64,000 nucleotides of DNA from Planktothricoides raciborskii GIHE-MW2. GTDB lineage: Bacteria; Cyanobacteriota; Cyanobacteriia; Cyanobacteriales; Laspinemataceae. The stretch spans positions 419,801 to 483,800 of the forward strand of contig NZ_CP159837.1 in NCBI RefSeq assembly GCF_040564635.1. The letters are read 5' to 3'. Below, in pieces: positions 14,756 through 64,000 of this stretch. The position numbers and the translations under genes were made by a program. A model generated the notes under the pieces. It was not told where the DNA came from, searched no databases, and saw only the letters and a program-made list of their open reading frames with translations. The stretch's first letter is position 1, and each line of letters starts with the position of its first letter.

Positions 14756-14769
14756 AAAAAATCTTAAAC

Positions 14770-28918: not shown

Positions 28919-28919
28919 C

Positions 28920-29035: not shown

Positions 29036-29281
29036 TACTGGCAAGATACAACTGAACCCAATGGTTTTGGGATTGCTAATGAAGAGCAGCTAGTCAATAC
29101 CCCCTACCAGTTTCAAATCTCTGCCAATGAATATGGCAGAGTGCATGGATTTTTTAGCGAAAATGTTTTTTACGCTATCTGGTTAGACCCAGACCATAAT
29201 CTTTATCGGTAAACATGAGAAAGCGATCGCGTTATTTAAGGCTACTACTCACAACACCGGACAGAACAAAACAAAACAAAA

Positions 29282-29653: not shown

Positions 29654-30057
29654 TGGATAATTACCTCCTCATTCGGATCGTAAATTATTTGTTTAATTTG
29701 ATATCTTTCCAGAGAAATTTGGGCAAATTCGCGCTTAAAAAAGGTTTGATACACCCCCACCGGCACTGCCAAATAAAGAATCCTTGTGGGATCGCTAATT
29801 TCTAAAGCAAGCCGATAATTCAAAAACTGTCCTAATGCAGCATGGTAATCGGTCAGGGGTGAATCACTTAAAAAGGTTTTTATCTCAACGGCTATTTTTT
29901 CTTGGCCTCGTTCTGCTGCTAACAGTTGCTCTGCACCTAAATCAATTTCAAATTTTGTGCCGCCTACTTCGAGTCTTAATGGATCGTCCGTGACATTCCA
30001 CTGCTCTTTTTCTAGAGCAATTCTAACCGCAGCATGAAATTTATCTTTAGCTCCCAT
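29641..30057 (-). CDS. xisH: XisH (fdxN element excision controlling factor XisH family)
   Basis: 'KDKFHAAVRIALEKEQWNVTDDPLRLEVGGTKFEIDLGAEQLLAAERGQEKIAVEIKTFL...LYLAVP' matches Anabaena XisH closely. The gene overlaps xisI by 13 bp. Confidence 0.9.
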   Translation of the reverse strand: MGAKDKFHAAVRIALEKEQWNVTDDPLRLEVGGTKFEIDLGAEQLLAAERGQEKIAVEIKTFLSDSPLTDYHAALGQFLNYRLALEISDPTRILYLAVPVGVYQTFFKREFAQISLERYQIKQIIYDPNEEVIIQWIK

Positions 30058-33934: not shown

Positions 33935-34580
33935 CAGCGGTTTTCTTTCTTAGTGAACCACCCTAGGGCGAAGCCCAAGCGGTATTTAATTTATTATTGT
34001 AGGGGCGAATGGCCATTCGCCCCTACACTGCCGGAATGCTTCGCCCCTACAGGTATTTGTGGTTTATTCAGCAGAAAATTGCTGTAAGGCCACGTTGCTT
34101 TGTTCTACCTTACCAGAGGAAAGAGAATACAGGAAAGAGAATAGAGTAAGGAAGGCATTGCCATCCCTGTGGTTGTTGTAGGGGCGCAATGCTTGCGCCC
34201 TTGAACCCTGGGAAAACGCCCTAAGTTGGGGGCGGGCGCTTGTAGGGCCTCTTCCGTGGCAGTGGTTGCCCCGATCGCCCGTGGTCGCCCCGCGCCCCTA
34301 CCCTGTCAGTGGGTCAGTCCTACAGCAATTTTCTGTAGAGTAAACCACAAATTTTTGTAGGGGCGAAGCATTCCGGCAGACAAATTATTGCTGAAAAGAT
34401 TAAATGTACGGGCCCGCGCATTCCGTAGGGGCGAATGGCCATTCGCCCTTGTACGGGCGAATGGCCATTCGCCCCAGAAGATGCTTAGAATATTAGATGG
34501 ACTACCGGAATGCTTCGCCCCTACGGAATGCGCGGGACCTACCCTGGTTCAGTAAGAAAGAAAACCGCTGTAATTTATTT
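33935..34580. repeat. Nested MITE cluster of the GTAGGGGCGAATGGCCATTCGCCCCTAC hairpin family
   Basis: Several hairpin copies, and units bounded by TTACAGCGGTTTTC...GCTGTAA. One unit spans about 33940-34080 and a larger composite spans about 34310-34580. Confidence 0.75.
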
Positions 34581-37500: not shown

Positions 37501-38279
37501 GAAACATTAATTAAACTGCGATTTCCTAGAGTAATATTTCCCCTGGTTATTTCTGGGGAAATTTGCCCTAAACCCAAGGCGGAATTTAACGGAACTTCGC
37601 CATTATTTCCTAGAGAAGCGATCGCAATTTGGCCATCGCTGGCCAAAAGTTGCCCCCCATTGAGGTTCACATCACCACCCACCAGGGTTAAACTTTGTCC
37701 GGGGTTGACCTGTAGGGTTGAACCTTGCAAGGTGAGTGACCCCGGACTGGTGGCAAATTGCAATCCTATGGGTAGATTAATGGTTAATAATGGCGCATCA
37801 TTTTTTTGAGTGGCACTAAAAAAATTACCATTGTTAAAATTTATCTGCTGCGCGGTAGAGGCGATAAAAGATCCGCCAATGGCTAATTGAGCATTTCGCC
37901 CAAACAAAATCCCATTCGGATTGAGTAAAAATAAGTTAGCGTTGCCGTTGGCTTTAACTATGCCATCAATATTAGAAACATTGTCCCCTGTCACTCGACT
38001 AAAGATATTTTCAATTGTTAAATAATTGTTAAAAAAAGCTTCCGTCCCCGTAGGCACAGAAAAGTCCTGAAAACTATGAAATAAACTGTCACCAGTGGTG
38101 GTTCCCCCTTCGATTTTGATGGTATTTCCTTCGGGTATGGCTACAGAATTATTTCGCAAGCTGCGATCGGGGATAATTTGGGCGTTGGTGGGAATACTAT
38201 AAAGTGTTTGTCCGAGCAAAACCACGGCCAAACTTTCGATAATTAATTGTGCGGGTAAACCCGGAAATTTTTTCTTCAT
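34575..38279 (-). CDS. Large exoprotein with an N-terminal two-partner-secretion (filamentous hemagglutinin / TpsA) domain and beta-helical repeats
   Basis: Signal peptide, then the TPS domain 'NTIKIEGGTTTGDSLFHSFQDFSVPTGTEAFFNN...IVKANGNANLFLLNPNGILFGRNAQL'. Long runs of GNxxI-type repeats follow, which also generate many spurious antisense ORFs. 1234 aa. Confidence 0.8.
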   Translation of the reverse strand: MKKKFPGLPAQLIIESLAVVLLGQTLYSIPTNAQIIPDRSLRNNSVAIPEGNTIKIEGGTTTGDSLFHSFQDFSVPTGTEAFFNNYLTIENIFSRVTGDNVSNIDGIVKANGNANLFLLNPNGILFGRNAQLAIGGSFIASTAQQINFNNGNFFSATQKNDAPLLTINLPIGLQFATSPGSLTLQGSTLQVNPGQSLTLVGGDVNLNGGQLLASDGQIAIASLGNNGEVPLNSALGLGQISPEITRGNITLGNRSLINVSGINQGINIDVGNLTVTGGSRIQSTINQNGKAGDIAINATGAIDISGFTPDGLFSGILSKTETAGTGGNIIINNPAGNVTLANRGFIAAVTNSPNNGGQIQINVNNLAIATGGQIITATTAPGNAGDITINATESVQLSGSSPNFLPNPLAKISAFDLNLLEFITQPNPDVEASGSNGIPYTSIQRTPAQIIAGTTVLADPTESFDYYKFSITQANSQGIFDIDAAKKSGPGDVETQIFLYNLATAHLLYTNDDSPTTSGAGGSSEQHDAYLNVTFDQPGIYLLGVAELDSFAATGSPISGNRLDVGDTYTLQVSLQNRGSEAVTVAETMINPDNFNPNRGANSGLFSESGGIGSGGNITINTGKLIVSDRADISINALDMGRGGNLLVNARDIVAIKDAEVSSITRGTGNAGNLIFNTGKLTLENEGILNTSTFGAGNAGDVTINATDTVEAFGVNDVGRFSVIRSEALEGSTGNGGNVNITARGLSLRDGGRILSTAKSDAPANSGSITVQTSDFVEIIGADLEGSASRLRTNAYLEGGSANAGDILIETGRLVFANGGKIESSTFGSGHAGNVTLKASESIEMTGLDPVESDPGFVASSTFANGNAGTITIETGGSLTLTDGSQFTANTSGSGNAGDVIVRAKLIELIGVSENGSSGLFASAFDETEDGSGTGKGGDVILNTNQLIIRDRAAISASNFASYAPLSPGKGPAGNVEITAREILLDNQGIISTTAAAGDRGNIFISSGDIQLRNNSNITASAFGEATGGNITLNNDNLIALENSDISANAEQSFGGRIVINANGIFGTDFRDINTPFSDITASSDLGAEFSGTVKLNTPDVDPASGLVALENNVISLSNLIADTCDASAGSSFYVIGRGGLPPNPDAWLGSDTVWIDPRIDDRANYSASIEPSEAIDNQRIVEATGWTVDADGSVKLIAQAANVNSGSPWERFREADPLRESPQCSILPPISQK

Positions 38280-39102
38280 ATAAATAAAATTTATTTGTTA
38301 GTCGGGATAAACTTAGAAAGAACTCAGAAACCGGGTTTCTTAATCAAATTCTCGGTATCAAGCATAGGTTGTCGCAGAAACCCGGTTTCTCCGCCGCAAC
38401 CCGGTTTCTCCGCCTCCGTATTTACTTGGACAATGCTTTGATTGTAGCCTGACTACTCTTTGGTTGACGTATCTGCACACAAAGTCCACGAAAACTTTAC
38501 AAAACTCAGGGGGTACGGAGGGGATATTGCCTCCGCAAAGCGATTCCCGTCTCTGGATCCGCAATGCGATCGCCCTGGGGTGGGGTCAAACCTTGGTACA
38601 ATGTGAGGAAATGACGTTTTCGCCGGATTTTGTGGCGATCGCAAGAGCGCAATTTTCTCCGCGAGTAAACCACAAATACCTGTAGGGGCGAAGCATGACC
38701 GCAGACAAATTATTGATGAAAATATTAATCTGAATCCGGTCATGCTTCGCCCTAGCGTGGTTCAGTAATCTGAAAACCGCTGTAAACAAATCACAGAAAC
38801 AAATCACAGGAAAAAGTTAATTATGGGAATTGAAAAAAGATTATCCAGAGCTATTTTTGCCCCGAATGAAATTGTGGAATTAAGACAACCTTGTTTTACT
38901 TCAACCCAAATGTTTGCCCCGGGAACTTATCCGGTGGAACAGTTACCAGATATTGCCTTTGAAATGGGCTTAGTAGAACGCTTGCGCCCTAGTCAAGGTA
39001 AAGCCGCAAAAGAAGAACAGTTATAAGATAAGAATTGGCGTGGCCGGAAGCGAAGATGCGGTGGATAAAAAGTTACAATGAAGCCGTTCTTTAAGTAAGG
39101 AG

Positions 39103-39486
39103 GTGTTTTTCCTGAAAAATCGTCCTGATGATGCTGAGATCGCGGAAATTTATGCCGCGATCGGTCGCCTTGTTATCCGATTTCCATTGCTCCACTGTGA
39201 GGAATGCGCTCGCACCCTCACAGTATGGCTTAAACAACGTGGAATCCCAGGAAAAATTTGGCGACTCTCGACTCGATCCGATTATGAAGACTTTATTCTC
39301 AGCGAACGACTAGAAAAAATCGGTTGTACGGAAACTATTACGGAAAATGGCGTTCATTATGGAGTCGAAGTGTTTGGCAAAATCTTTGATAATCTTTCTA
39401 CAGAGGGACTTTTGCCCGATGATTGGATTAAAGATTTTACCTCATTATCTAATGAATTTGATGTTGAAGTGATTTCGGAGTTTTAG
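39103..39486 (+). CDS. Hypothetical protein, possibly a papain-fold (Cys/His) toxin-like domain
   Basis: 127 aa. A conserved-looking 'HCEECARTLTVWL' and 'HYGVEVFGKIFDN' could form a Cys-His dyad. The family call is speculative. Confidence 0.3.
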   Translation: MFFLKNRPDDAEIAEIYAAIGRLVIRFPLLHCEECARTLTVWLKQRGIPGKIWRLSTRSDYEDFILSERLEKIGCTETITENGVHYGVEVFGKIFDNLSTEGLLPDDWIKDFTSLSNEFDVEVISEF

Positions 39487-39502
39487 GGATTTAATTAATT
39501 GT

Positions 39503-39901
39503 ATGGAAAAAAAGATGAGTACATTATTTAATCTACTGGATAAAATCAAGATAAAACCGGCACTTTACCTGGGAACGAGTTCGATTACTCATTTAAGAAT
39601 GTTCATTCTTGGCTATCGATTTGCTCGGTCAGAAATGGGCATTACTAACACGGAAGCAGAAAGTGACTTTTACAAAAACTTTCAACCCTGGCTGCAAAAT
39701 CGCTTATCCATTCATACGGTTAATGGGTGGGATAAAATTATTTTGCTGACCTGTATCGACGAAAAAGCAGCTTTTGATTATTTCTTTAACCTGTTAGATG
39801 AGTTTCTCCAGCGCGATCGCAGCCAAACGATCGATCCAATTCTCGTCGAATCTGCCTCAAAAGATGCCAATTTTGTAGGGGCAAAGCATTCGCTCCGATA
39901 A
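39503..39901 (+). CDS. Hypothetical protein, candidate immunity partner of the preceding ORF
   Basis: 132 aa, starting 17 bp downstream of 39103..39486. No family recognised. Confidence 0.3.
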   Translation: MEKKMSTLFNLLDKIKIKPALYLGTSSITHLRMFILGYRFARSEMGITNTEAESDFYKNFQPWLQNRLSIHTVNGWDKIILLTCIDEKAAFDYFFNLLDEFLQRDRSQTIDPILVESASKDANFVGAKHSLR

Positions 39902-46175: not shown

Positions 46176-46248
46176 GCCCCCATCGTCTAGAGGCCTAGGA
46201 CACCTCCCTTTCACGGAGGCGACGGGGATTCGAATTCCCCTGGGGGTA
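46176..46248 (+). tRNA. trnE: tRNA-Glu (anticodon UUC)
   Basis: GCCCCCATCGTCTAGAGGCCTAGGACACCTCCCTTTCACGGAGGCGACGGGGATTCGAATTCCCCTGGGGGTA. It folds as a cloverleaf with acceptor GCCCCCA/TGGGGGT (G1.U72), D-arm, anticodon loop CTTTCAC, T-loop TTCGAAT and discriminator A. No CCA is encoded. Confidence 0.85.
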
Positions 46249-46309: not shown

Positions 46310-46580
46310 GTTTGTTGGTTGGGGTGTAGGGTGTAGGGTGTAGGGTGTAGGGGAAGAGAGGGTGTAGGGTGTAGGGAATAGAGAATAGTGAATAGTGAAT
46401 AGTGAATAGTAAATAGTGAATAGTGAATAGTGATATTTATTTTGTACGGGCGAATGGCCATTCGCCCCTACGACTACGGGCGAATGGCCATTCGCCCCTA
46501 CGAATGCATCACTTTCTTCCCCCACACCCCCCACACCCCCCACACCCCACACCCCACACCCTACACCCCACACCCTACAC
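46310..46580. repeat. Block of STRR-type heptamer tandem repeats ((GGTGTAG)n, (AATAGTG)n, (CCCCACA/CCCTACA)n) with two GGGCGAATGGCCATTCGCCCCTAC hairpins in the middle
   Basis: Directly visible. These repeats generate spurious ORFs on both strands. Confidence 0.9.
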
Positions 46581-46592
46581 CCTGTTCTATAA

Positions 46593-47627
46593 ATGATGAC
46601 TCTGAAAGATTGCATAAATCCATTAACACTCCAGGGCAACCCGTTAAGTGTGGCGCCGATGATGGATTATACCGATCGCCATTTTCGCTATTTTATGCGG
46701 CAGATTACCCGTCGGACGCTGTTATATACGGAGATGGTGACGACCGCAGCGATTATTCACGGCGATCGCCCCCGACTGTTGGGTTTTTCTCCAGAGGAAA
46801 AGCCCGTATCCCTGCAACTGGGGGGGGACGATCCGCAGGAGTTGGCGGAATGCGTTCGCATTGGGACGGATTTTGGCTATGACGAGATTAATTTAAATGT
46901 CGGTTGTCCCAGCAGTCGGGTGCAAAATGGCAATTTTGGGGCTTGTTTGATGGCCCAACCAGACCGAGTTGCCCGGGCAGTGGAGGCTATGCAGCAAGCG
47001 ACCCATTTGCCGATTACGGTAAAACATCGGATTGGGATTGACGATCGCGATCGCTATGAGGATATGGCGAATTTTGTCCGGGTTGTTTCTGGGGCTGGGT
47101 GTCAGCGGTTTACCGTTCATGCCCGCAAAGCCTGGTTACAAGGGTTAAGTCCCAAGGAAAATCGCGATGTTCCGCCGTTGCGTTACGGTGATGTGTATCG
47201 TTTAAAGCAAGATTTTCCCCATTTGTTTGTGGAAATTAACGGCGGTGTGACTACTTTGGCCGAGGTTAAAGCACATTTGCAGTTGGTGGATGGGGTGATG
47301 ATTGGTCGGGCAGCTTACGATCGCCCTTATTTGTTTGCGGAATGCGATCGGGAGATTTATGGGGAAAATACTACGCCCCTGACGCGGCATCAAGTGGTTG
47401 AAGCCATGCTGCCTTATATTGAGTATTGGCTGAGTCAAGGGTTGAGTTTAAATAAGATGAGCCGACATTTGTTGTTATTGTTTAATGGACAACCGGGGAG
47501 TCGTGTTTGGAAACGATATCTGAGTGAAAATGCTCATGTTCCTGGGGCGGGAGTTGAGGTGATTCTGGCGGCTTTAGCCCAAGTTCCTCCCCCAGAGATG
47601 GCCGGTTTAACGGTATCAAATATTTGA
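46593..47627 (+). CDS. dusA: tRNA-dihydrouridine(20/20a) synthase DusA
   Basis: Strong similarity to E. coli DusA along the whole length: 'LSVAPMMDYTDRHFRYFMR...LLYTEMVTT.AIIHG', 'YDEINLNVGCPS.RVQNG.FGACLM', 'VKHRIGIDD', 'HARKAWLQGLSPKENR..PPL.Y', 'YLSENAH'. Confidence 0.9.
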   Translation: MMTLKDCINPLTLQGNPLSVAPMMDYTDRHFRYFMRQITRRTLLYTEMVTTAAIIHGDRPRLLGFSPEEKPVSLQLGGDDPQELAECVRIGTDFGYDEINLNVGCPSSRVQNGNFGACLMAQPDRVARAVEAMQQATHLPITVKHRIGIDDRDRYEDMANFVRVVSGAGCQRFTVHARKAWLQGLSPKENRDVPPLRYGDVYRLKQDFPHLFVEINGGVTTLAEVKAHLQLVDGVMIGRAAYDRPYLFAECDREIYGENTTPLTRHQVVEAMLPYIEYWLSQGLSLNKMSRHLLLLFNGQPGSRVWKRYLSENAHVPGAGVEVILAALAQVPPPEMAGLTVSNI

Positions 47628-47892
47628 CAACGGTCTGAATCGGCTAGGTTATGGGGATGGGTGCTTATCGGTTTTGCGGTTGGTTATGGGCGGGGTATAA
47701 TAGAGGTTGACCCGCAATCTGCGTCAGGGGATATTTGCGCGGAGGGGTGGGTGTAAAAACAGGGCAGGGCATTTTTTCCTCTGAACTGTTTATGGGGTCG
47801 AGGTTTGAGAGTTTTTGAGTCTCGAACCGATCCGCGCAAATCCTGAAATCCTTTGTGAGTCAGGGTTTTGGTTTATTCAGGTTTGAGGTCTG

Positions 47893-47923
47893 TTGACAAA
47901 TTTGGGGGGTTGCATGGTATGAT
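47893..47923 (+). promoter_or_regulatory. Candidate sigma70-type promoter in the CRISPR leader (TTGACA, 19 nt, TGgTATGAT extended -10)
   Basis: ttgacaaatttggggggttgcatggtatgat lies about 65 bp upstream of the first repeat and is oriented towards the array. The spacing is long, so this is tentative. Confidence 0.3.
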
Positions 47924-47986
47924 GAAGTCGATTCGCGCAAATGAACCTGGAAAATTAAATAAATCAAGGGTTCCGAGCCCCGGCCT

Positions 47987-50900
47987 GTTGCAACTATATT
48001 GAATCCCTATTAGGGATTGAAACGCTTAACCCGCTTACTTTGGGCGTAAGTATCCCAGTGGTTGCAACTATATTGAATCCCTATTAGGGATTGAAACTTG
48101 GCTTCTGGTAGCAGCGGGGTGTCGGTCGCGGGCGGTTGCAACTATATTGAATCCCTATTAGGGATTGAAACGCAACCCTAGATTAGCTTGTAAGTCGTAA
48201 TTGCTGTTGCAACTATATTGAATCCCTATTAGGGATTGAAACAAGGCGCAAATTGATGCAATTTGTCTTGAAAACTGGTGTTGCAACTATATTGAATCCC
48301 TATTAGGGATTGAAACCACCACCCGAACCGAAAACGGACGGACGCTGACCAAGCTGTTGCAACTATATTGAATCCCTATTAGGGATTGAAACTTCCGGGT
48401 TGCGATCGCGCTTCTCTTAATAGCGGAAAGTTGCAACTATATTGAATCCCTATTAGGGATTGAAACTGGCAGGTAAGCAATACCCGCTACACCGGCCACC
48501 TTAAGTTGCAACTATATTGAATCCCTATTAGGGATTGAAACAACAAACAGTAAACTATTTACGGCTTCTGAAAAAGTGGTTGCAACTATATTGAATCCCT
48601 ATTAGGGATTGAAACAAGCTTATAGGGATGCCAATGATGAATTTGAAGGCATAATGTTGCAACTATATTGAATCCCTATTAGGGATTGAAACCAACAAAT
48701 GACCAATTCATCAGGTGTGCAGATATGAGTTGCAACTATATTGAATCCCTATTAGGGATTGAAACTAAAATATATAGATTTTAGAATGGATCCAGCTTGC
48801 CTGTTGCAACTATATTGAATCCCTATTAGGGATTGAAACGTTTGGGGTGTGGGATGCGGTGAATCTGCCAAACGTTGCAACTATATTGAATCCCTATTAG
48901 GGATTGAAACAGTTGCCGGGCCTCTGAGGGTGAAACCGACGGCCTGATGGCGGTTTGTTGCAACTATATTGAATCCCTATTAGGGATTGAAACAGTTGCC
49001 GGTAAATTTTGAGAATTTCCAGGCAATGTTGCAACTATATTGAATCCCTATTAGGGATTGAAACGACAGCAAAATTTCTGGGATATGCTTGATAAAGTAG
49101 AGTTGCAACTATATTGAATCCCTATTAGGGATTGAAACTTCTAACCGATTGAGAACCGAATAAACCGATTTAATGTTGCAACTATATTGAATCCCTATTA
49201 GGGATTGAAACTTGTAAATTTCTTTCTTTCTTTTTCCCCTAAAAAAATGTTGCAACTATATTGAATCCCTATTAGGGATTGAAACTTAGCTAGTAAGAAA
49301 TCAGGCAAAAATAAACCAGAGAGTTGCAACTATATTGAATCCCTATTAGGGATTGAAACAGATACTGAGAGTGAGGGTCGGTTGCTGAAAGGTGTGTTGC
49401 AACTATATTGAATCCCTATTAGGGATTGAAACCAAAATGAACTTAACCAGTCTGGCTGCCTTCTCATGTTGCAACTATATTGAATCCCTATTAGGGATTG
49501 AAACTAGGGCTGACGAACGATCAAAAACTTTGGCTGACTCGTTGCAACTATATTGAATCCCTATTAGGGATTGAAACGTTATGCGGCAAACTGCTTAAAA
49601 TAGCTTTGGCCAAACGACTCGTTGCAACTATATTGAATCCCTATTAGGGATTGAAACGTTATGCGGATCCAGAATTACCAGGGATTCTGGTTGAGTTGCA
49701 ACTATATTGAATCCCTATTAGGGATTGAAACTGATGCGGCTTGTTGACTTGATTTATTGGTAGCAAGTGTTGCAACTATATTGAATCCCTATTAGGGATT
49801 GAAACTTCAGACAACATAAAGCCTCGGTCACGCCAGACTCCGTGTTGCAACTATATTGAATCCCTATTAGGGATTGAAACTGGGAATACGATCGCCCGGC
49901 TCCGACTCCGGCATGGTGTTGCAACTATATTGAATCCCTATTAGGGATTGAAACGATAGATAGGAAAATGTTGACCAAAAACTTCAACAAAGTGTTGCAA
50001 CTATATTGAATCCCTATTAGGGATTGAAACGCTGCGGCCCAAACACCCCCGCGCTTGGTGGCGATGTTGCAACTATATTGAATCCCTATTAGGGATTGAA
50101 ACCCTGAGTTGCAGCGTTTATCAGTCGAAAATTATGGTTGCAACTATATTGAATCCCTATTAGGGATTGAAACTCGCCAAAAACAAAAACCCCGACGCCT
50201 TACGGCATCGGGTTGCAACTATATTGAATCCCTATTAGGGATTGAAACTTAAACTATCACTTAACTGCTGACTTTTTTCCTTTGTTGCAACTATATTGAA
50301 TCCCTATTAGGGATTGAAACAGCAACCACGCCGTTGCCGTAATGTTGAGAAGCGGTATGTTGCAACTATATTGAATCCCTATTAGGGATTGAAACCTCGA
50401 ATTGCAGCACCGCGAAGCTGCAAATCATGTTGCAACTATATTGAATCCCTATTAGGGATTGAAACCGTTGCCGACGCGGGTAGTGGACTTCAAGGGTAAG
50501 CAGGTTGCAACTATATTGAATCCCTATTAGGGATTGAAACTTTTTTGAGCGATCGCACCCGACCTCCTACACCCCCAGTTGCAACTATATTGAATCCCTA
50601 TTAGGGATTGAAACGGCTTTCATTTCATACACCCCCAAAAATTGCAGCGATGTTGCAACTATATTGAATCCCTATTAGGGATTGAAACGATGCTGTGGCA
50701 ACCAATCAGCCCAGAAACCGGGGAAAAGTTGCAACTATATTGAATCCCTATTAGGGATTGAAACAATTGGATTACGATCATCAAAAATAAAGGCTATTTT
50801 AGTTGCAACTATATTGAATCCCTATTAGGGATTGAAACGGGGGGTGGAGCCCAGGAACCCAGCAATGGGATTCAGGAGAGTAATGTTGCAACTATATTGA

Positions 50901-53900
50901 ATCCCTATTAGGGATTGAAACGACAGTTTGGCTGACATACTGTTAGTATAATGCGTTGCAACTATATTGAATCCCTATTAGGGATTGAAACGGCAATGTA
51001 CAATCTGAGAATATTACCATATAAGAATGGTTGCAACTATATTGAATCCCTATTAGGGATTGAAACTGAGTCTCCACTGAGTTTTTTATTGGGAACCGAG
51101 ACAGTTGCAACTATATTGAATCCCTATTAGGGATTGAAACCTGTTCGGTGGAGATTGAACGAAGTTATGGCAAGAGTTGCAACTATATTGAATCCCTATT
51201 AGGGATTGAAACAGAGCGATCGCTGAAATCCGACCCGCTACTGCCTCACTAGAAAGTTGCAACTATATTGAATCCCTATTAGGGATTGAAACTTGTAGTG
51301 ACTGGCTGGAGACTTGCACTGATTGAGTTGCAACTATATTGAATCCCTATTAGGGATTGAAACACTTCCAGATACGGGCATCTTAGGTGATCAATTCCGG
51401 TTGCAACTATATTGAATCCCTATTAGGGATTGAAACCTTTGCATTGCCGGATCGTCCGTCTAGCCACGGCAAAGTTGCAACTATATTGAATCCCTATTAG
51501 GGATTGAAACAAGGCGCTCATTCATACCTTCGGCCCTTTCTCTCATTGTTGCAACTATATTGAATCCCTATTAGGGATTGAAACCGAGTTACTTGCTACC
51601 GTCCGTTACCACCGTTTGGTGGTTGCAACTATATTGAATCCCTATTAGGGATTGAAACCGATCCAGGGTGTCGGTTTGGCAATCATAAAGCTAGGTTGCA
51701 ACTATATTGAATCCCTATTAGGGATTGAAACAATTTCGTCTGCCATCGGTGCCAGATTTTGTAGGGCTGGTTGCAACTATATTGAATCCCTATTAGGGAT
51801 TGAAACGAAGGGATGGTTCTATGAGGCTACAAATTAACGAGTTGCAACTATATTGAATCCCTATTAGGGATTGAAACAGCCACGTTAGCACGCTTAAAAT
51901 CTGCTTACCTGATAGGTTGCAACTATATTGAATCCCTATTAGGGATTGAAACCAGTACAGGCATTGACATCTCAGGCATCTATCAAAGTTGCAACTATAT
52001 TGAATCCCTATTAGGGATTGAAACCTTGAGGCTCACTATCCGACGCGCCAACGGTCGGGTTGCAACTATATTGAATCCCTATTAGGGATTGAAACGGGGA
52101 GATCGCTCTGGCACCTTGACCACCCCCGACGGCGTTGCAACTATATTGAATCCCTATTAGGGATTGAAACGGCAAGTATCGCGGGCGATTCTGCACTCAA
52201 GAAAGCGAGTTGCAACTATATTGAATCCCTATTAGGGATTGAAACAATGCCTGTACTGCCATAGGTGAAATCCCATCGCCGTCACAGTAAGTAATGATGG
52301 ATCCGCTAATTGAAACAATGCCTGTACTGCCATAGGTGAAATCCCCACAGATCGCCGTTGCAACTATATTGAATCCCTATTAGGGATTGAAACGAATTGG
52401 GTCACTATATCTTGGTGGGAAATGCCAGTTGCAACTATATTGAATCCCTATTAGGGATTGAAACATACCTTCAATTTCAGCGATCTTAACGGCAAGTGCG
52501 TTGCAACTATATTGAATCCCTATTAGGGATTGAAACATTAACGTCCCAGCAAATTAGCTATTTGCTGGGACAAGTGTTGCAACTATATTGAATCCCTATT
52601 AGGGATTGAAACTACAGCATTCCCATCATCGTCAAAGTCAAGCCCATAGGTTGCAACTATATTGAATCCCTATTAGGGATTGAAACAGAATTGCCACCTC
52701 CTAGGTCTAAAATGCCATTGATTGTTGCAACTATATTGAATCCCTATTAGGGATTGAAACCGGGGGGTGGGTTTTGGGCTGATTCTGAACCCTGAACGTT
52801 GCAACTATATTGAATCCCTATTAGGGATTGAAACTAAAATTTTGGAACTAACAAAGTTGGAATGAGAAAAAGTTGCAACTATATTGAATCCCTATTAGGG
52901 ATTGAAACCGGTTAATATTCACGGTTTACACCCCCCCTAAAATTGGTTGCAACTATATTGAATCCCTATTAGGGATTGAAACACAGATGACCCTCGATCA
53001 ACTAAATCACCTGGTGGCAGGTTGCAACTATATTGAATCCCTATTAGGGATTGAAACCTGTAGCCCGTGTCAGCGAATCTGCCAAGATTACGTTGCAACT
53101 ATATTGAATCCCTATTAGGGATTGAAACACTGGCTTGAGTGGAAATAAAGGGACTACCCTTAATTGTTGCAACTATATTGAATCCCTATTAGGGATTGAA
53201 ACCAGTCCCGCGTAAACCGTGGGAAACAATGGCATTGGGTTGCAACTATATTGAATCCCTATTAGGGATTGAAACAACAAAAAGTAAGCTGTTCACTGCC
53301 TCTGAAGTGTTGCAACTATATTGAATCCCTATTAGGGATTGAAACGCTAAAAGCTTTGGCTTTGCAAATAGTAGGGCTGCTCGTTGCAACTATATTGAAT
53401 CCCTATTAGGGATTGAAACCAATTAATGCTTAAAGATCCTAAATCGATTTTTTCGTTGCAACTATATTGAATCCCTATTAGGGATTGAAACACGCACAAA
53501 ACAGGCGCAAAGAAGCAAGCGGGCGAGGGGTTGCAACTATATTGAATCCCTATTAGGGATTGAAACATTATTTTTTCTACTTATATCAAATCTTTTGATG
53601 ATGTTGCAACTATATTGAATCCCTATTAGGGATTGAAACTCCTACTCAGAAGAGATGAACACACCGGATCCGAGCGTTGCAACTATATTGAATCCCTATT
53701 AGGGATTGAAACTAAAAAAGAAGTATTGCAAATAGGACACCCTATGGTTGCAACTATATTGAATCCCTATTAGGGATTGAAACAACTCTTTTTGTTGATG
53801 AGGCGATCACAAGCCACCGTTGCAACTATATTGAATCCCTATTAGGGATTGAAACGCTCCACAAATTCACCGCTGCGGTGCCAATCTCCTGGTTGCAACT

Positions 53901-56900
53901 ATATTGAATCCCTATTAGGGATTGAAACCGCTAAATTTAGCGGACGATGGGTGGACAACCATCGAGTTGCAACTATATTGAATCCCTATTAGGGATTGAA
54001 ACGGGATTTTCTGATTTTAAAATCAAATTCAAAAAAATGTTGCAACTATATTGAATCCCTATTAGGGATTGAAACAACTTGCATTCCTTCAAAATTAGTA
54101 ATTTTATATTGTTGCAACTATATTGAATCCCTATTAGGGATTGAAACTATACCAGGAACTCATGAATTTATTGAAAATGTTACTGTTGCAACTATATTGA
54201 ATCCCTATTAGGGATTGAAACAATCCCATAGATTTATCGCCGCGATCGCCACCCTGCGTTGCAACTATATTGAATCCCTATTAGGGATTGAAACGGGGAA
54301 GGAAAAACCTATATTCAGGCACCCAAAATGTTGCAACTATATTGAATCCCTATTAGGGATTGAAACCGACAAGAAAACTGGTGAAATCGACAAAAAAGCC
54401 GGTTGCAACTATATTGAATCCCTATTAGGGATTGAAACGGGTTTATCAGATGCAAAAGAGAACCATTTTTCTGTTGCAACTATATTGAATCCCTATTAGG
54501 GATTGAAACCACCTATAGCCGGGGGACGAGTAGCGGAAGAGCCAAAGTTGCAACTATATTGAATCCCTATTAGGGATTGAAACTTGGACATTGGCGGCGG
54601 TAACTCTACAGGGTGTCTGTGTTGCAACTATATTGAATCCCTATTAGGGATTGAAACCGGGGTGATTGTATCCGGGCATTTTGTATAAGCGGTCGTTGCA
54701 ACTATATTGAATCCCTATTAGGGATTGAAACCTTAGATTTTCTGGAACTGTGGGGACTTAGAAAATCAGTTGCAACTATATTGAATCCCTATTAGGGATT
54801 GAAACACGGCAGCAGCAATGATTCCGCTAAGGCTAATGTGCGTTGCAACTATATTGAATCCCTATTAGGGATTGAAACCCTTTTTGATGTTTTTTGCCGC
54901 ATACTTAACGTTAAAGTTGCAACTATATTGAATCCCTATTAGGGATTGAAACGGGGCTACCTCTCACCGAGCCTCACCGAAAATTCCTCGTTGCAACTAT
55001 ATTGAATCCCTATTAGGGATTGAAACAGAAACATTTTCCCATTGCGATTGATTAAAGGTAAATGTTGCAACTATATTGAATCCCTATTAGGGATTGAAAC
55101 TATTCAAGATTACTTGGATTATAAAATCAAACAAGAAGTTGCAACTATATTGAATCCCTATTAGGGATTGAAACATCCCCTGCTGACAACCGGGGCCGCA
55201 GTAAGTCACAAGCGAGTTGCAACTATATTGAATCCCTATTAGGGATTGAAACTGGACTTTTGGCTAAAAACGACCAGACGGCCGCACAGGTTGCAACTAT
55301 ATTGAATCCCTATTAGGGATTGAAACGGCAATCTGTGATTTGTGATGGGAGTATTAAACCAAGTTGCAACTATATTGAATCCCTATTAGGGATTGAAACT
55401 AGATAATTGATAGCTAACTCTGATTTACCGCTGCCCCGTTGCAACTATATTGAATCCCTATTAGGGATTGAAACTAAAGTTGCGATCGCCATAACAGAAA
55501 GTCCCTGATTCGTTGCAACTATATTGAATCCCTATTAGGGATTGAAACCCATTGCTTATAGTCCTTAAAATAGTTTGTCAACGTTGCAACTATATTGAAT
55601 CCCTATTAGGGATTGAAACTAGCAACCGATTCTGGTAAACCTGAAAGTAGATTTGTGTTGCAACTATATTGAATCCCTATTAGGGATTGAAACGTAATTG
55701 ACAAAAAGTAAGCTATTCACGGCTTCTGAAGTTGCAACTATATTGAATCCCTATTAGGGATTGAAACTTTTGTTTTGGATTTAGCCTTTAGCCGCCTCTA
55801 GCAGTTGCAACTATATTGAATCCCTATTAGGGATTGAAACAATGCCGTGTTGCGTTGTTGATTAACGCGGGTAATGAGTTGCAACTATATTGAATCCCTA
55901 TTAGGGATTGAAACGTAATTGACAAAAAGTAAGCTATTCACGGCTTCTGAAAAAGGTTGCAACTATATTGAATCCCTATTAGGGATTGAAACATACAAAA
56001 TGCAACAACCCCCCTAGACTTTCGGCTAGGTTGCAACTATATTGAATCCCTATTAGGGATTGAAACTTGAGCAATTACCTTTGCCCCCATCGCCAATTCA
56101 GGGTTGCAACTATATTGAATCCCTATTAGGGATTGAAACTCTAAGTTTGCTGACAGCGCTATAACTTAGCCCGCTTCGTTGCAACTATATTGAATCCCTA
56201 TTAGGGATTGAAACGATAGCAGGATGGCTTGACGAGTGGGCAATTTTCGGTGTTGCAACTATATTGAATCCCTATTAGGGATTGAAACAAGACGCGATCG
56301 CCGCAAAAAGGGACTAGCTAACCCCCGTTGCAACTATATTGAATCCCTATTAGGGATTGAAACACAAGCCTCACTTGGATCCGCTAATTCTGCGATATGA
56401 GATGGGAGTTGCAACTATATTGAATCCCTATTAGGGATTGAAACCAACTGATCCATCCGCAGTCTCAGGCCGGTGATCACTGTTGCAACTATATTGAATC
56501 CCTATTAGGGATTGAAACAACGACACTGAACAACAAACCATCACCCTGATTTTCAGGTTGCAACTATATTGAATCCCTATTAGGGATTGAAACGACAAAA
56601 AGCAAGCTATTGACCGCTTCTGAGAAACGTTGCAACTATATTGAATCCCTATTAGGGATTGAAACCGGATGGACCCTAAATCAAGAACAACGCCGGATCC
56701 TCGTTGCAACTATATTGAATCCCTATTAGGGATTGAAACAGTGCGATCGCCACCTTCATAACTGATGGCGTCAGCAGTTGCAACTATATTGAATCCCTAT
56801 TAGGGATTGAAACGCCCCCCGACAAAGACAAAAATTGCTGGTTGCAGGCCGTTGCAACTATATTGAATCCCTATTAGGGATTGAAACTAAAAGTTTCTTT

Positions 56901-59900
56901 GGCGGGCTTCGCCAATACAAAGCAGTTGCAACTATATTGAATCCCTATTAGGGATTGAAACCATTTATCGAGGTAAAAATGAAACGAAAAAATATCAAGT
57001 TGCAACTATATTGAATCCCTATTAGGGATTGAAACGAACAAGTCAAAGTTGAAGCCGAAAAGATAGGCCAATGTTGCAACTATATTGAATCCCTATTAGG
57101 GATTGAAACGGGAAGAACGGGCGACCAGTAAGGATCGAATCCGAGTTGCAACTATATTGAATCCCTATTAGGGATTGAAACCTCTGCCAATTTTCGAGAT
57201 GCACTAAAGCTAGGAGTTGCAACTATATTGAATCCCTATTAGGGATTGAAACGGCGATCGCGAGTTCGATCAACTTGATTAATTCGTGTTGCAACTATAT
57301 TGAATCCCTATTAGGGATTGAAACAGACTCCCAGGGGCGGATGAATGTGGACTTCATTCGTTGCAACTATATTGAATCCCTATTAGGGATTGAAACATCC
57401 ATTGATTGATTATGACTACCAAGTTAATGAGTGTTTCAGTTGCAACTATATTGAATCCCTATTAGGGATTGAAACGATACTTTTACATTGCCAATTAATC
57501 GCATCATAGTTGTTGCAACTATATTGAATCCCTATTAGGGATTGAAACGTTCTGCTCCAAGGTGAAGTCGTAGGAGCCGGGGGGAGACTCATCGTTGCAA
57601 CTATATTGAATCCCTATTAGGGATTGAAACATTGTTGCGATCGCTCCACCAAGCAAAAATTCAGCAGGTTGCAACTATATTGAATCCCTATTAGGGATTG
57701 AAACGGCTGCTCCCAAGGAAAATAATTCTCATAGTCAAAGTTGCAACTATATTGAATCCCTATTAGGGATTGAAACAACGCATTAAATTTAACGAATTTC
57801 TGATTAATAATTGTTGCAACTATATTGAATCCCTATTAGGGATTGAAACAAAACAAATCACCAGAATTTTGCTCAAACATCTGGTTGCAACTATATTGAA
57901 TCCCTATTAGGGATTGAAACACCAGAACCTAATACTTTAGATCTAAAACTAATCATGTTGCAACTATATTGAATCCCTATTAGGGATTGAAACTCTTTTT
58001 CCGTTTTTAGTTTTTGGCATCTTTTTGTTGCAACTATATTGAATCCCTATTAGGGATTGAAACAAGGCGTGTAACCACCACTTCACTTACTTGCTGCGAT
58101 CGTTGCAACTATATTGAATCCCTATTAGGGATTGAAACAGCAGGAGTCGAGCGAGCTTTAGAGTCTAGCGGATGTTGCAACTATATTGAATCCCTATTAG
58201 GGATTGAAACAACTTACGAACCTACCGCTTGCAAGATTACTTTTACAGTTGCAACTATATTGAATCCCTATTAGGGATTGAAACACTCTTGCGATCGCTC
58301 CACCAAGCAAAAATTCAGCAGGGTTGCAACTATATTGAATCCCTATTAGGGATTGAAACTCGTAGGTCTTGTTCCAGAACTTCTGGAGCTAGTAGTTGCA
58401 ACTATATTGAATCCCTATTAGGGATTGAAACATAATATCTTCTCTCCTTAATTAATTCTCTACCTTGTTGCAACTATATTGAATCCCTATTAGGGATTGA
58501 AACGCGAAGGACAATCGGACTAAGTATTATCTATATAAGAGTTGCAACTATATTGAATCCCTATTAGGGATTGAAACGCCTTTTTCTCCCTTTTCTCCTT
58601 TTTCTCCTTTTTGTTGCAACTATATTGAATCCCTATTAGGGATTGAAACTTCTACTAAAACAAACCCTACTGCTGATTTCCAGAGTTGCAACTATATTGA
58701 ATCCCTATTAGGGATTGAAACAACCAAAGCTGCACTGGCAGTAGTAGCACCAGTCGTTGCAACTATATTGAATCCCTATTAGGGATTGAAACGGGGCGAT
58801 TATGAAAACATGGGTATTGCTGTAATGTTGCAACTATATTGAATCCCTATTAGGGATTGAAACTCAAAAATCATATAGCCAGTATTCAGAGTGGATAAAG
58901 TTGCAACTATATTGAATCCCTATTAGGGATTGAAACAGTGAATAGCTGTCTGTCTATGGCAGAAAAGGTGCGTGTTGCAACTATATTGAATCCCTATTAG
59001 GGATTGAAACCTACCCCCCATCCCCCCTAGTGTGGTCTCATGCGATGTTGCAACTATATTGAATCCCTATTAGGGATTGAAACTTGATAGTGAAACCATT
59101 CCTCATAAAATGAACTACGGGTTGCAACTATATTGAATCCCTATTAGGGATTGAAACTTGATAGTGAAACCATTCCTCATAAAATGAACTACGGGGTTGC
59201 AACTATATTGAATCCCTATTAGGGATTGAAACAACTCGACGGTAGCCGTGCCACCGGCTTGAGAAGATTGTTGCAACTATATTGAATCCCTATTAGGGAT
59301 TGAAACCGGTTTTTCTCCGCTCGCTTGCGGCGCTAGGCTACGGGTTGCAACTATATTGAATCCCTATTAGGGATTGAAACGCTTCTACTGTGGATCAGAT
59401 CGTAGCGGGGGCTACTGTTGCAACTATATTGAATCCCTATTAGGGATTGAAACGGGCTTTATAATCTGCCCAGAAATCCTTCCAGAGGTTGCAACTATAT
59501 TGAATCCCTATTAGGGATTGAAACCGCCTGGTTTTGCGCTTGGCACTGGTATCCGCACGTTGCAACTATATTGAATCCCTATTAGGGATTGAAACCTCTC
59601 TCATCTGTTTTTGCTTCATTTTATAGTATTCAGGTTGCAACTATATTGAATCCCTATTAGGGATTGAAACGGGGAAATCCTTTGGGGACAGACCGAATGG
59701 GAAGACGTTGCAACTATATTGAATCCCTATTAGGGATTGAAACTCTACAACAAAATCTAGATGGCCTTTGCCACAGGGTGTTGCAACTATATTGAATCCC
59801 TATTAGGGATTGAAACCATAAGTGTCTATGGATGTCTTGGCCTAATTCTTTGTTGCAACTATATTGAATCCCTATTAGGGATTGAAACTGTTCATCGCGG

Positions 59901-62900
59901 GCAACCTCGTCTCTGGCCTTGAAAAGTTGCAACTATATTGAATCCCTATTAGGGATTGAAACCTAAACTTTCAATCTCAACTTTACGGGAGATAAGAGGG
60001 TTGCAACTATATTGAATCCCTATTAGGGATTGAAACGCAGTTGGGCCGAAGTCGAGGGACTTTTAGGATTCACGTTGCAACTATATTGAATCCCTATTAG
60101 GGATTGAAACTTTGGGGTGAAATCAGACCTAGATTCATTAGCTTTAGTGTTGCAACTATATTGAATCCCTATTAGGGATTGAAACATTAAGCCCGTGCCG
60201 AGGCTGATAGATATCATCCAAAATGTTGCAACTATATTGAATCCCTATTAGGGATTGAAACATTGCGATCGCACCCAAGGGGGGGGGTGATCGTGGGTGT
60301 TGCAACTATATTGAATCCCTATTAGGGATTGAAACGACAAATGCAGCGGGCACTGATAGGATGTAATTGCGATGTTGCAACTATATTGAATCCCTATTAG
60401 GGATTGAAACGACTAAAAAGACAACTGAAAATAAATGAGGAAAATGTTGCAACTATATTGAATCCCTATTAGGGATTGAAACCCTCTGTATAGATCGCGA
60501 AAAGATAGAAAGTTTCTGTGTTGCAACTATATTGAATCCCTATTAGGGATTGAAACAAATTCGCTAGTCGTACGCAAGTACGCGAAAGCTTAGTTGCAAC
60601 TATATTGAATCCCTATTAGGGATTGAAACAAGTTCTTGATGATGCTCCAGTTTTTTATTGCCATTTTGTTGCAACTATATTGAATCCCTATTAGGGATTG
60701 AAACTACGGATTAAACCTTTGAAGGAAAATATCAAGCTTTTGCGGTTGCAACTATATTGAATCCCTATTAGGGATTGAAACGGAACACACCCACAATGGC
60801 TCAACAAACATATTTTGGTTGCAACTATATTGAATCCCTATTAGGGATTGAAACCTCTGGTTTATATATATAATTCTAGCGACCTGGTTGTTGCAACTAT
60901 ATTGAATCCCTATTAGGGATTGAAACACGGATTAAGCCACTCAAAGAAAATATCAAGCTTTTGGTTGCAACTATATTGAATCCCTATTAGGGATTGAAAC
61001 AGCGATCGCATCCGCATCCACATCCGAGGTCGGGGTCGGTTGCAACTATATTGAATCCCTATTAGGGATTGAAACATCGTATCCCCGTCTGAAATGCGAT
61101 CAACTTGCCACGTTGCAACTATATTGAATCCCTATTAGGGATTGAAACCCAGATGGGGTTGACTGCGATCGATTCAGCGGCGGCGGTTGCAACTATATTG
61201 AATCCCTATTAGGGATTGAAACAAGTGGGCCGGGGGTGGGTGGGTGGGCGTGTTGGTTTTGTTGCAACTATATTGAATCCCTATTAGGGATTGAAACGAT
61301 TTTCTCCTGATTTTGGTGTTTGCGGTGAGTATTGTTGCAACTATATTGAATCCCTATTAGGGATTGAAACAAGTGGGCCGGGGGGCGGGCGGGTGGGCGC
61401 GTTGGTTGCAACTATATTGAATCCCTATTAGGGATTGAAACACCGCCGACGATTACCCCGGCCTATACCGCAATGGAAAGTTGCAACTATATTGAATCCC
61501 TATTAGGGATTGAAACTCAAATACTTATCGAGGTTTGGTCGGAAATGAATAGTGGTTGCAACTATATTGAATCCCTATTAGGGATTGAAACCAAGGTGAA
61601 GCGATCGCCATTCCGGGATAAAACATGGGTTGCAACTATATTGAATCCCTATTAGGGATTGAAACTGGAAATCTTGATCGGAGAGGGTAGCCGGTGCTAT
61701 GCCGTTGCAACTATATTGAATCCCTATTAGGGATTGAAACGTCAAACTTAGCGCTGATGCGGGTTTTAAAGTTTTTTGGTTGCAACTATATTGAATCCCT
61801 ATTAGGGATTGAAACTTTGCGATTTAAGCGGGGTGAGGCTGAAAAGCTTGTTGCAACTATATTGAATCCCTATTAGGGATTGAAACAGGGTAAAGCGATC
61901 GCCATTCCGACTAAGAACATGGCGGTTGCAACTATATTGAATCCCTATTAGGGATTGAAACTTGGGTATTTCCGACAAAAGGGAAAAATTAAAAGTCGGG
62001 TTGCAACTATATTGAATCCCTATTAGGGATTGAAACGCGATTTGAACGCGCGATCGAGGGCTTATGAGGCTTTTGTTGCAACTATATTGAATCCCTATTA
62101 GGGATTGAAACGGATTAAATCTTGTTGGGGCAGCGACTCCAGAATGTTGCAACTATATTGAATCCCTATTAGGGATTGAAACACACTCTAACCAAGTGCA
62201 AAAAAGTGCAGGGCAAGCGTTGCAACTATATTGAATCCCTATTAGGGATTGAAACCTCGGGCTAATGAAAGTAAAACTATTTATGTTTCCAGTTGCAACT
62301 ATATTGAATCCCTATTAGGGATTGAAACGATTAAGAGTTAGAGAATTTGCTTGCAAGTTGGCTGTGGTTGCAACTATATTGAATCCCTATTAGGGATTGA
62401 AACCGCAGCATTTCCAGGGATATTCCCAGATATTTGAGCGGTTGCAACTATATTGAATCCCTATTAGGGATTGAAACACATTTTGCATAATTTTTTCACC
62501 AATTATCTTACATAGTTGCAACTATATTGAATCCCTATTAGGGATTGAAACAAGTCCGACGGGGGTTGTTCAAGACCCGATTACAAAAGTTGCAACTATA
62601 TTGAATCCCTATTAGGGATTGAAACGGAAACAGATTTTTTGTCGAATATCCCCAGCAAATGTTGCAACTATATTGAATCCCTATTAGGGATTGAAACGTA
62701 AGAGGTCTGATGGGTGCAGCCGCAGGTGCCGCGTTGCAACTATATTGAATCCCTATTAGGGATTGAAACGTAATCAAAGGTGATTCCAGCAAAGAATCTT
62801 ATTGGTTGCAACTATATTGAATCCCTATTAGGGATTGAAACGATTCTGGGTAAGCAGTCCCAACAACCATAAAGCTAGGGTTGCAACTATATTGAATCCC

Positions 62901-64000
62901 TATTAGGGATTGAAACGCTTGGAAAGCAGGGAAGCAATGCCCCACATCCGCGAGTTGCAACTATATTGAATCCCTATTAGGGATTGAAACCAGCCGAACC
63001 ACTGGTGAGGCAATCCTCCGGCAAGTTGCAACTATATTGAATCCCTATTAGGGATTGAAACAACCACCTTCGCGGATGTGGGGCATTGCTTCCCTGCTTT
63101 CCAGTTGCAACTATATTGAATCCCTATTAGGGATTGAAACATCTCGGTTACAAACCACTCTAATTTTGATGTTTTGTTGCAACTATATTGAATCCCTATT
63201 AGGGATTGAAACTTTCCCGTGCCTGTGGGGGGGGATAGCAATACAAAAGTTGCAACTATATTGAATCCCTATTAGGGATTGAAACGTAAAATGGTCGTTT
63301 TTTGCGGGTAAGTATTGATCGAGTTGCAACTATATTGAATCCCTATTAGGGATTGAAACATATAAGAATTCGGAAGTGCTGGTGCCATTGAATTCATCAA
63401 GTTGCAACTATATTGAATCCCTATTAGGGATTGAAACCTCTACATCTTTGGGTGGGTAGTAGTCTCCTCGCGGTTGCAACTATATTGAATCCCTATTAGG
63501 GATTGAAACTTAATGACTCAATCTCAGATTCTAGGGATTGAATGTTGCAACTATATTGAATCCCTATTAGGGATTGAAACCATTTCCGATTGCTCCCGAA
63601 CCTTGACAAGTATTGTTGCAACTATATTGAATCCCTATTAGGGATTGAAACGCCTTCCGTGCGGATAACTATTACTTTGTACCCAGTTGCAACTATATTG
63701 AATCCCTATTAGGGATTGAAACCGGATTCTTATCGCGATCAGCCAGCGGGCTACAGTTAGTTGCAACTATATTGAATCCCTATTAGGGATTGAAACGCTC
63801 TCTGCTTTCCGATTGAGCGATTCTTCGGAGACGACGGAGTTGCAACTATATTGAATCCCTATTAGGGATTGAAACTTCCTATTGATTGCTACTTATTTTT
63901 GATTTAGTCTATGTTGCAACTATATTGAATCCCTATTAGGGATTGAAACCAGGACTTTGGATTCTCAGCAGTGTAGGAGTGATAGAGTTGCAACTATATT
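47987..64000 (+). CRISPR. CRISPR array of about 218 repeat-spacer units. Repeat 37 bp GTTGCAACTATATTGAATCCCTATTAGGGATTGAAAC, spacers about 33-45 bp. The array continues beyond the window end.
   Basis: The repeat is perfectly conserved from the first copy at 47987 to the truncated copy at 63976-64000. It has an internal palindrome AATCCCTA..TAGGGATT and a 3' ATTGAAAC, the typical 5'-handle precursor of Cas6-processed crRNAs. This orients transcription on the + strand, with the leader on the dusA side. No cas genes lie within the window. Confidence 0.98.

Follow-up and report, generated by a model that had tools for sequence, protein, structure and literature searches.

The 64,000-nt stretch of the Planktothricoides raciborskii GIHE-MW2 chromosome analyzed here (the window) ends in a CRISPR array that fills its last 16 kb. 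These 16 kb are very probably the leader-proximal part of a very long DR5, type I-D array at a locus between dusA and hisH, with the type I-D mechanism supplied in trans. The analysis shows the following: the array itself, its strand and repeat family, a conserved leader, the lack of nearby cas genes, type I-D cas genes encoded by that genome, a bias toward GTN flanks, strain-specific spacers, and scars of spacer integration. A search for literature on strain GIHE-MW2 found none. The locus is laid out in the window as follows.

46593–47627, + strand: dusA, tRNA-dihydrouridine synthase A, left flank of the array locus (Pfam Dus, E = 1.5e-92; XCM37613.1)
47628–47986, + strand: CRISPR leader, in which 47733–47986 (~255 nt) is conserved with cas2-adjacent type I-D leaders
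47987–64000, + strand: CRISPR array of ~217 spacers, with 216 exact copies of the 37-nt repeat plus a corrupted and a truncated copy; continues past the window

Array and repeat

The array starts at 47987 on the + strand and runs for more than 16 kb, as an initial annotation of the sequence had stated. Counts cover the window only, from 47987 to 64000, and the repeat total is a lower bound. The repeat, GTTGCAACTATATTGAATCCCTATTAGGGATTGAAAC, is 37 nt long and is present in 216 exact copies with zero mismatches. A near-copy search found no variants with six or fewer errors on either strand of the window. The first repeat (47987–48023) is where the initial annotation placed it, and the last full repeat is at 63913–63949 instead of 63976. 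A 14-nt copy at 63987–64000 is cut by the window end, showing that the array runs off the window. The earlier count of at least 218 identical repeats is corrected to 216 identical, one truncated, and one corrupted. The description of every repeat as identical fails at 52281–52316, where ATTGAAAC alone survives; with a corrupted repeat in its middle, 52246–52356 appears as a single 111-nt spacer. Of 217 full repeats, 216 are identical. Spacers are 33–46 nt long (mode 37, with ~6-nt variation around the mode), and 200 of 215 repeat periods fall between 70 and 76 nt. Few spacers are duplicated or overlap within the array, which has the identical repeats and unique spacers of similar length that define CRISPR arrays.

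All 216 repeats match the Rfam family RF01318 (CRISPR-DR5) on the + strand with 48.5 bits (gathering score 40), and the match spans the full model (positions 1–37 of 37). This supplies the repeat classification that the initial annotation had recommended, and places the repeat in DR5, described as the repeat family of type I-D that is common among cyanobacteria (PMC4916379), from which it shows no structural difference. The repeat RNA is predicted to fold into a 7-bp stem closed by a 3-nt loop (AAUCCCU AUU AGGGAUU) followed by an unpaired GAAAC at the 3' end, with a folding energy of −9.1 kcal/mol (z = −3.4). The hairpin is followed by the ATTGAAAC handle. The repeat is predicted to be of the Cas6 type, the architecture that had been recognized at the outset and that the hairpin, handle, and Rfam match bear out.

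The exact 37-mer has no match in a collection of bacterial genomes with one genome per species; GIHE-MW2 and Planktothricoides sp. SR001 are evidently not species representatives. It was found in a single Joint Genome Institute (JGI) metagenome contig (L006) and recurs in Planktothricoides assemblies. A survey with the 21-nt repeat core returned 8-kb stretches with roughly 1–65 repeats each among the matches listed.

Leader

Window positions 47733–47986 align with the leader on L006, and the same sequence lies 3' of cas2 on two further contigs (L007 and L008). A fourth leader (L139), compared together with the 3' end of dusA, is 86% identical to that of the window. Four short elements stand out.

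47733–47741, + strand: leader motif ATTTGCGCG, an inverted copy of CGCGCAAAT; conserved in L006, L007, L008, and L139
47833–47841, + strand: leader motif CGCGCAAAT, second of three copies; conserved in the L006 alignment
47893–47923, + strand: promoter-like element, TTGACA, 16 nt, TGGTATGAT (extended −10); read by eye and kept in all related leaders
47934–47942, + strand: leader motif CGCGCAAAT, third copy, 45–53 nt 5' of repeat 1; conserved in the leaders of relatives

The three CGCGCAAAT copies, the first of them inverted, are spaced at 100 and 101 nt and may be bound by a host factor or by the integrase. Leaders of the type I-D system of Synechocystis are ~200–220 bp long and carry motifs I (GCCAAA), II, and III (TTGGC) (PMC6607411). 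The third CGCGCAAAT copy matches motif I, which is ~50 bp upstream of the array, in its place; the likeness is a resemblance only. Copies of CGCGCAAAT are also kept in the cas2-adjacent type I-D leaders of relatives. The promoter-like element is the presumed start of transcription of the precursor CRISPR RNA (pre-crRNA). It was omitted by a consensus promoter scanner because the spacing between its hexamers is 19 nt.

Type I-D cas genes

All open reading frames (ORFs) of at least 80 aa in window positions 1–47986 were compared with Pfam, and unassigned ones with PADLOC. Neither scan gave a Cas match, in agreement with the initial annotation, and the type I-D signature genes (cas10d/csc3, csc2, csc1, cas6, cas4, cas1, and cas2) do not adjoin the array on its left. 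The initial annotation had expected cas genes beyond the right edge or elsewhere in the genome. The latter is the case: GIHE-MW2 encodes Cas1d (XCM39533.1), Cas4 (XCM39534.1), Cas6 (XCM39535.1), Csc1 (XCM39536.1), and Csc2 (XCM39538.1), and the consecutive run of accessions (XCM39533–39538) indicates one operon. These accessions are ~1,920 away from that of dusA (XCM37613.1), which would put the operon roughly 2 Mb from the array on the 7,215,835-bp chromosome, to judge from protein accession order. A position just beyond the right edge is probably wrong, as the right flank in two relatives consists of hisH and housekeeping genes.

The repeat and leader are physically linked to type I-D genes in related sequences. 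On contig L006, cas2 and a ~330-nt leader precede an array of 34 exact repeats, which closes with a single degenerate copy and is followed by ddl. The nearest homologue of its Cas2 (98% identity) is encoded in type I-D operons on L007 and L008, where the order is cas3'-hepT-cas10d-csc2-csc1-cas6-cas4-cas1-cas2-leader-array-ddl. Array repeats on these two contigs differ from the window's at three or six positions, all of which are outside the stem and handle except for one loop base. Cas6 of GIHE-MW2 shares 93% identity with its counterpart beside the L007 array, and a protein identical to the GIHE-MW2 Cas6 is encoded in type I-D operons on at least six metagenome contigs (L009–L014). Cas10d, Cas3', and Cas2 occur in operons with an identical Cas6 or a close Cas2. 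NCBIfam equivalogs confirm Cas10d/Csc3, Cas7/Csc2, Cas5/Csc1, Cas6, Cas4, Cas1d, and Cas2, with a score of 444 bits for Cas1d (cut-off 385). We infer that the window array is served in trans by the type I-D cas genes of the same genome.

Type I-D operons of this clade also contain genes of the toxin-antitoxin type (L007, 1133–1588; L009, 303–740 and 6145–6408; L012, 3339–3590). A HepT-like gene is located between cas3' and cas10d, and a PhdYeFM antitoxin gene between csc2 and csc1.

Spacers

Searches for spacer targets, which the initial annotation had proposed, were negative for GenBank phages, PLSDB plasmids, and the 48 kb of host DNA upstream. Megablast of the whole array against the phages and plasmids returned two matches to Nostoc plasmids, neither of them strong enough to qualify as a target. 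All 215 spacers were compared with phages using word-11 blastn (E up to 1) with no match. Scans of IMG/VR with multiply acquired spacers, including degenerate consensus patterns, gave no match, and matches to the 48 kb upstream were limited to 13–16 nt, as expected by chance. With a codon-usage score trained on window genes, the spacers resemble coding DNA, at 2.65 compared with 0.59 after shuffling and 4.11 for host coding sequences. The 8-nt palindrome GCGATCGC, the cyanobacterial HIP1 motif, occurs at 1.8 copies/kb in spacers and 1.4/kb in the host, a density that points to host-adapted elements as targets.

Several spacers were taken from the same target more than once. One pair within the window is given here.

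55694–55955, + strand: spacers 104 and 107, with the same 5' start and different 3' ends

Both belong to a family of five, made up of spacers 8 (48542–48578), 71 (53276–53308), 104 (start 55694), 107 (start 55915), and 116 (56594–56628). By our own codon-phase reading of the sequences, the five represent one coding protospacer in four synonymous versions that differ only at every third base, and in every version the complementary strand translates as SEAVNSLLFV. The pattern points to acquisition on several occasions, from diverging relatives of one gene. Three pairs (104/107, 150/151, and 130/139) have a common 5' start and differing 3' ends, and such fixed 5' ends fit anchoring on the side of the protospacer-adjacent motif (PAM). 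Variation in spacer length of ~6 nt around a mode, as seen in the window, has been described for type I-D (PMC5896167).

Offset-overlapping spacers, within or between strains, were used to identify the PAM, with one spacer revealing the 5' flank of the other. Flanks are GTC or GTT (GTN) in six of nine cases, each with a chance of 1/16 (P ~1e-5). GTN is the experimentally established, functional type I-D PAM (PMC5896167). An AAA flank (from spacer 65 of assembly L143) was discarded, as the two spacers differ by a 3-nt indel and are not offset. Window spacer 103 (55620–55656) and spacer 74 of SR001 (L144) come from the same protospacer with a 3-nt offset; acquisition slipped in SR001, where the spacer includes the GTC PAM as its first bases. 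Counterparts of window spacers 94, 133, and 178 are likewise present in arrays of other strains. Protospacers shared in this way suggest that strains meet the same mobile elements.

The spacers also bear on a possible type III (RNA-targeting) effector, encoded elsewhere, as the main or an additional user of the array. Sharing of CRISPR RNAs (crRNAs) between systems occurs in cyanobacteria and other bacteria. The five-spacer family (starts 48542, 53276, 55694, 55915, and 56594) is antisense to its inferred coding strand, as type III use would have it. Among 214 spacers, however, there is no antisense bias (97 forward and 117 reverse, P = 0.19) in a test that orients host sense 37-mers correctly 83% of the time, which argues against a purely transcript-targeting type III origin. 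Two spacer pairs (54/58 and 202/204) derive from opposite strands of one target, the GTN bias is a sign of type I adaptation and interference that depend on a PAM, and the repeat and leader accompany type I-D operons in relatives. A role in type III immunity is unlikely on this evidence.

The same locus in relatives

The junction of dusA, leader, and repeat recurs in L001–L005 (Logan contigs from several samples) and in four assemblies (L143–L146). Assemblies with a DusA of at least 90% identity (same protein cluster) have the identical repeat directly 3' of dusA. The 10 kb retrieved from SR001 contain at least 130 repeats. L143 has at least 120, L145 at least 80, and L146 has 46 and closes with a degenerate copy. 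In GCA_011390955.1 (L147), which has a variant of the repeat, the array has at least 121 repeats and its trailer end abuts a gene for a 226-aa membrane protein. Beyond this gene are hisH, peptidase C15, ATP-grasp, alpha-E, ppk, and NACHT genes, with no cas genes. Two JGI contigs (L139 and L140, 201 kb and 94 kb) carry dusA, the leader, exactly one repeat, and hisH. No cas genes neighbor the locus on either side wherever both sides are visible, and array size at the locus ranges from 1 to more than 217 repeats among relatives. The dusA-hisH array locus is thus ancestral in the clade.

Spacers of the window were compared with those of SR001 and the three other assemblies (45–129 spacers each), and a single window spacer recurs there (window spacer 133 = L143 spacer 67). 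Strain-specific spacers and varying array size at one locus argue for recent activity. The initial annotation had called the array active or recently active, and this holds up well given the strain-specific spacers at the same locus, the protospacers acquired independently more than once, and the intact, conserved leader.

A less probable alternative still than type III use is that the array is a stranded relic, once cas-adjacent and no longer acquiring or using spacers. Arrays classed as "distant" from cas genes can be remnants (PMC7145637), no cas gene lies within 48 kb upstream, and one relative is down to a single repeat at the same locus. The window array, by contrast, has 216 of 217 full repeats identical, and conservation extends to its leader, promoter-like element, and motifs. 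Among conspecific strains that carry the identical repeat, no more than one spacer out of 45–129 each is shared, which requires much acquisition since their divergence. Independent acquisitions with fixed 5' ends have occurred repeatedly, and the adaptation genes for Cas1d and Cas4 are in the same genome.

CRISPR-associated transposons (CASTs) have short arrays. With more than 216 repeats and diverse, strain-specific spacers in the window, no TnsA, TnsB, TnsC, TniQ, or Cas12k-like proteins among the ORFs of the 48 kb upstream, and a locus that keeps its place between dusA and hisH across several relatives, an I-D or V-K CAST homed beside tRNA-Glu or dusA can be set aside with near certainty, even though a tRNA-Glu gene is present at 46176–46248 and cyanobacteria are described in one account as rich in CASTs, including I-D CASTs (PMC9881144).

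Two further features were observed at the locus in relatives. The single-repeat locus on L139 (11033–11745) and L140, where the leader is complete, is an array that either collapsed to zero spacers or never expanded. L143 (18829–19506) and L146 (12607–13284) have an identical 678-nt segment without repeats between two repeats, followed by three repeats with a C-to-T change in the last base. The segment is probably foreign or rearranged DNA inside the array.

Integration scars

Three places in the array retain the marks of irregular spacer integration.

52238–52345, + strand: off-register spacer integration, with a 34-nt insert (52275–52308) between a perfect 37-nt direct duplication
48911–49002, + strand: integration scar at 46-nt spacer 13, which begins with the same 9 nt (AGTTGCCGG) as older spacer 14 (48994–49002)
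49578–49666, + strand: second such scar at 43-nt spacer 22, which begins with the same 9 nt (GTTATGCGG) as older spacer 23 (49658–49666)

The sequences of these scars were read directly, and the events behind them are reconstructed. In the first, the two copies of the duplication (52238–52274 and 52309–52345) each consist of the last 8 nt of the repeat (ATTGAAAC) and the first 29 nt of an older spacer. We infer that the 111-nt unit arose by a spacer integration that had the correct 37-bp stagger but began 29 bp downstream of its proper place. At this false start site, ATTGAAAC, six of eight bases agree with the true repeat start, GTTGCAAC. Insertion of crRNA-derived sequence was rejected as a source of this unit: the 34-nt insert and 37-nt duplication are both canonical, and a target-site duplication is more economical. 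It is the sole off-register duplication among eight over-long units in all arrays fetched. With the hairpin lost at the corrupted repeat, Cas6 should not cut there.

Spacers 13 and 22 are among seven of 43–46 nt, the longest in the array other than the 111-nt composite. Their scars are consistent with a second nick placed 9 bp too far, which would duplicate the repeat plus 9 nt. Like scars were found in two unrelated DR5 arrays (L101 and L039), with prefixes of 11 and 12 nt and correspondingly long spacers. Prefix events of at least 9 nt number four in 1,457 adjacent pairs from 87 DR5 arrays, where ~0.006 are expected by chance. This suggests that the second integration nick may overshoot by about one helical turn.

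A broader reading joins the scars to the locus, and we offer it tentatively, as a possibility that falls short of an even chance. The main immune memory of Planktothricoides would sit at the remote dusA-hisH locus with a leader copy alone, swinging from 1 to more than 217 repeats among close relatives. The scars would show that site 1 of the type I-D integrase is set by an xTTGxAAC octamer, with the off-register event occurring at ATTGAAAC instead of GTTGCAAC, and site 2 by a 37-bp ruler with an occasional overshoot of 9–12 bp.

Proposed mechanism

Each step of the proposed mechanism is drawn from homology to, or analogy with, the type I-D system of Synechocystis; the processing geometry is taken from a review of type I-D (PMC10212523), and the scheme also draws on PMC5896167 and PMC6607411. 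The array would be transcribed rightwards from a promoter in its own ~255-nt conserved leader. Cas6 from the one type I-D operon on record for the strain, at a distance of roughly 1,900 genes, would cut the pre-crRNA after the AAUCCCU-AUU-AGGGAUU hairpin, leaving an 8-nt 5' handle (AUUGAAAC) and a 29-nt 3' handle. The predicted hairpin and the ATTGAAAC 3' end fit the Cas6d cut geometry of PMC10212523. The crRNAs would then load into a type I-D Cascade (Cas10d, Csc2, and Csc1), with Cas3' and Cas10d degrading DNA that has a GTN PAM. New spacers would be added at the leader end by Cas1d, Cas2, and Cas4, also in trans.

Several observations weigh against a type I-D array used in trans. The distance from array to operon is known via accession order only, and Cas2, Cas10d, and Cas3' of GIHE-MW2 were not individually recovered, leaving completeness of the operon unproven. 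No protospacer was found in any database searched. The PAM comes from nine indirect flanks, and among the five that flank window spacers, two are GTN (both GTC). The literal Synechocystis motifs GCCAAA and TTGGC are missing from the window leader.

Relation to known systems

The array is of a kind already known (type I-D, DR5); what is unusual is its size without nearby cas genes, together with the readable scars of mis-integration. CRISPR1 of Synechocystis sp. PCC 6803 (type I-D) and DR1 of Microcystis aeruginosa (repeat GTTCCAATTAATCTTAAACCCTATTAGGGATTGAAAC) likewise have a 37-nt repeat, with an identical 3' half, CCCTATTAGGGATTGAAAC. The Microcystis DR1 repeat is tabulated as subtype I-D (PMC4428289). 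Variable spacers of ~33–40 nt, the GTN PAM, the Cas6-type hairpin, and the predicted 8-nt handle are also common features (PMC5896167, PMC10212523). Unlike in these two systems, the 5' half of the repeat (GTTGCAACTATATTGAAT...) differs, and the window array is away from the cas operon with its own copy of the leader at a housekeeping locus.

Microcystis type I-D arrays of 112 and 187 repeats have been reported, and the window array is larger than any Microcystis array tabulated in that study (PMC4428289). The largest array on record has 587 spacers (PMC7145637, PMC7145573). The initial annotation had described arrays of this size as rare, which is true only relatively: the size is unusual when the cas genes are far away. 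Distant arrays, defined as those more than 20 kb from any cas cluster, make up ~23% of all CRISPRs and have a mean of 13 repeats (PMC7145637, Bernheim et al. 2019); they are smaller than cas-adjacent arrays (PMC7145637). The window array fits this class, since a cas cluster in another part of the genome is compatible with its repeat, and is apparently distant and not orphan. It has at least 217 repeats, compared with the usual mean of 13 and with 18 and 35 in the cas-adjacent arrays of relatives that have the same leader.

Taken at face value, a leader alone, megabases from cas genes, can support a very large array with fast turnover, which runs against the trend for distant arrays to be small. 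The ~217 spacers without a match to known phages are a record of uncharacterized mobile elements in a bloom-forming cyanobacterium that produces off-flavors, and could be used to link viromes to P. raciborskii as host. The three scars are naturally occurring evidence of the way in which the repeat is measured during type I-D integration, a question previously addressed mainly by heterologous assays.

Upstream region

Genes upstream of the array include bioF and genes of the DUF218, B12 radical-SAM, and SLH-domain kinds, as well as ffh, khpA, phoH, OCP/FRP, GUN4, chlH/cobN, a two-component system, and others. DusA (XCM37613.1), BioF (XCM37608.1), and an NB-ARC protein (XCM37590.1) are exact matches to GIHE-MW2 proteins. 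The window has one RNA gene apart from the array.

46176–46248: tRNA-Glu, the sole non-CRISPR RNA gene of the window

The upstream region is rich in conflict-type genes (25104–30057 and 34575–39901). These include an NB-ARC/STAND ATPase, a PIN toxin paired with a SocA/Panacea antitoxin, a PD-Lambda-2_B-like fragment, xisH/xisI, a 1234-aa exoprotein secreted by two-partner secretion (TPS), and a Tox-PL-2 papain-fold toxin with a small adjoining ORF. A 3-kb stretch at 14166–17251 has small ORFs only, with DUF4926-type and DUF433-like peptides, and looks like a toxin-antitoxin or small-gene island. It follows a dispersed element of ~150 nt with two copies (13955–14104 and 14355–14495). At one copy the element overlaps the long chlH/cobN ORF at its 5' end, when that ORF is taken from the TTG far upstream at which it is listed.

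Heptanucleotide tandem repeats (GGGTGTA, TAGTGAA, and CACACCC) occupy 46322–46582, between tRNA-Glu and dusA. Kindred low-complexity runs of the GGTTGTT and GGGGTGT types are found between cas1 and cas2 in related type I-D operons (L006, 11040–11118; end of L009), where they break short-read assemblies.

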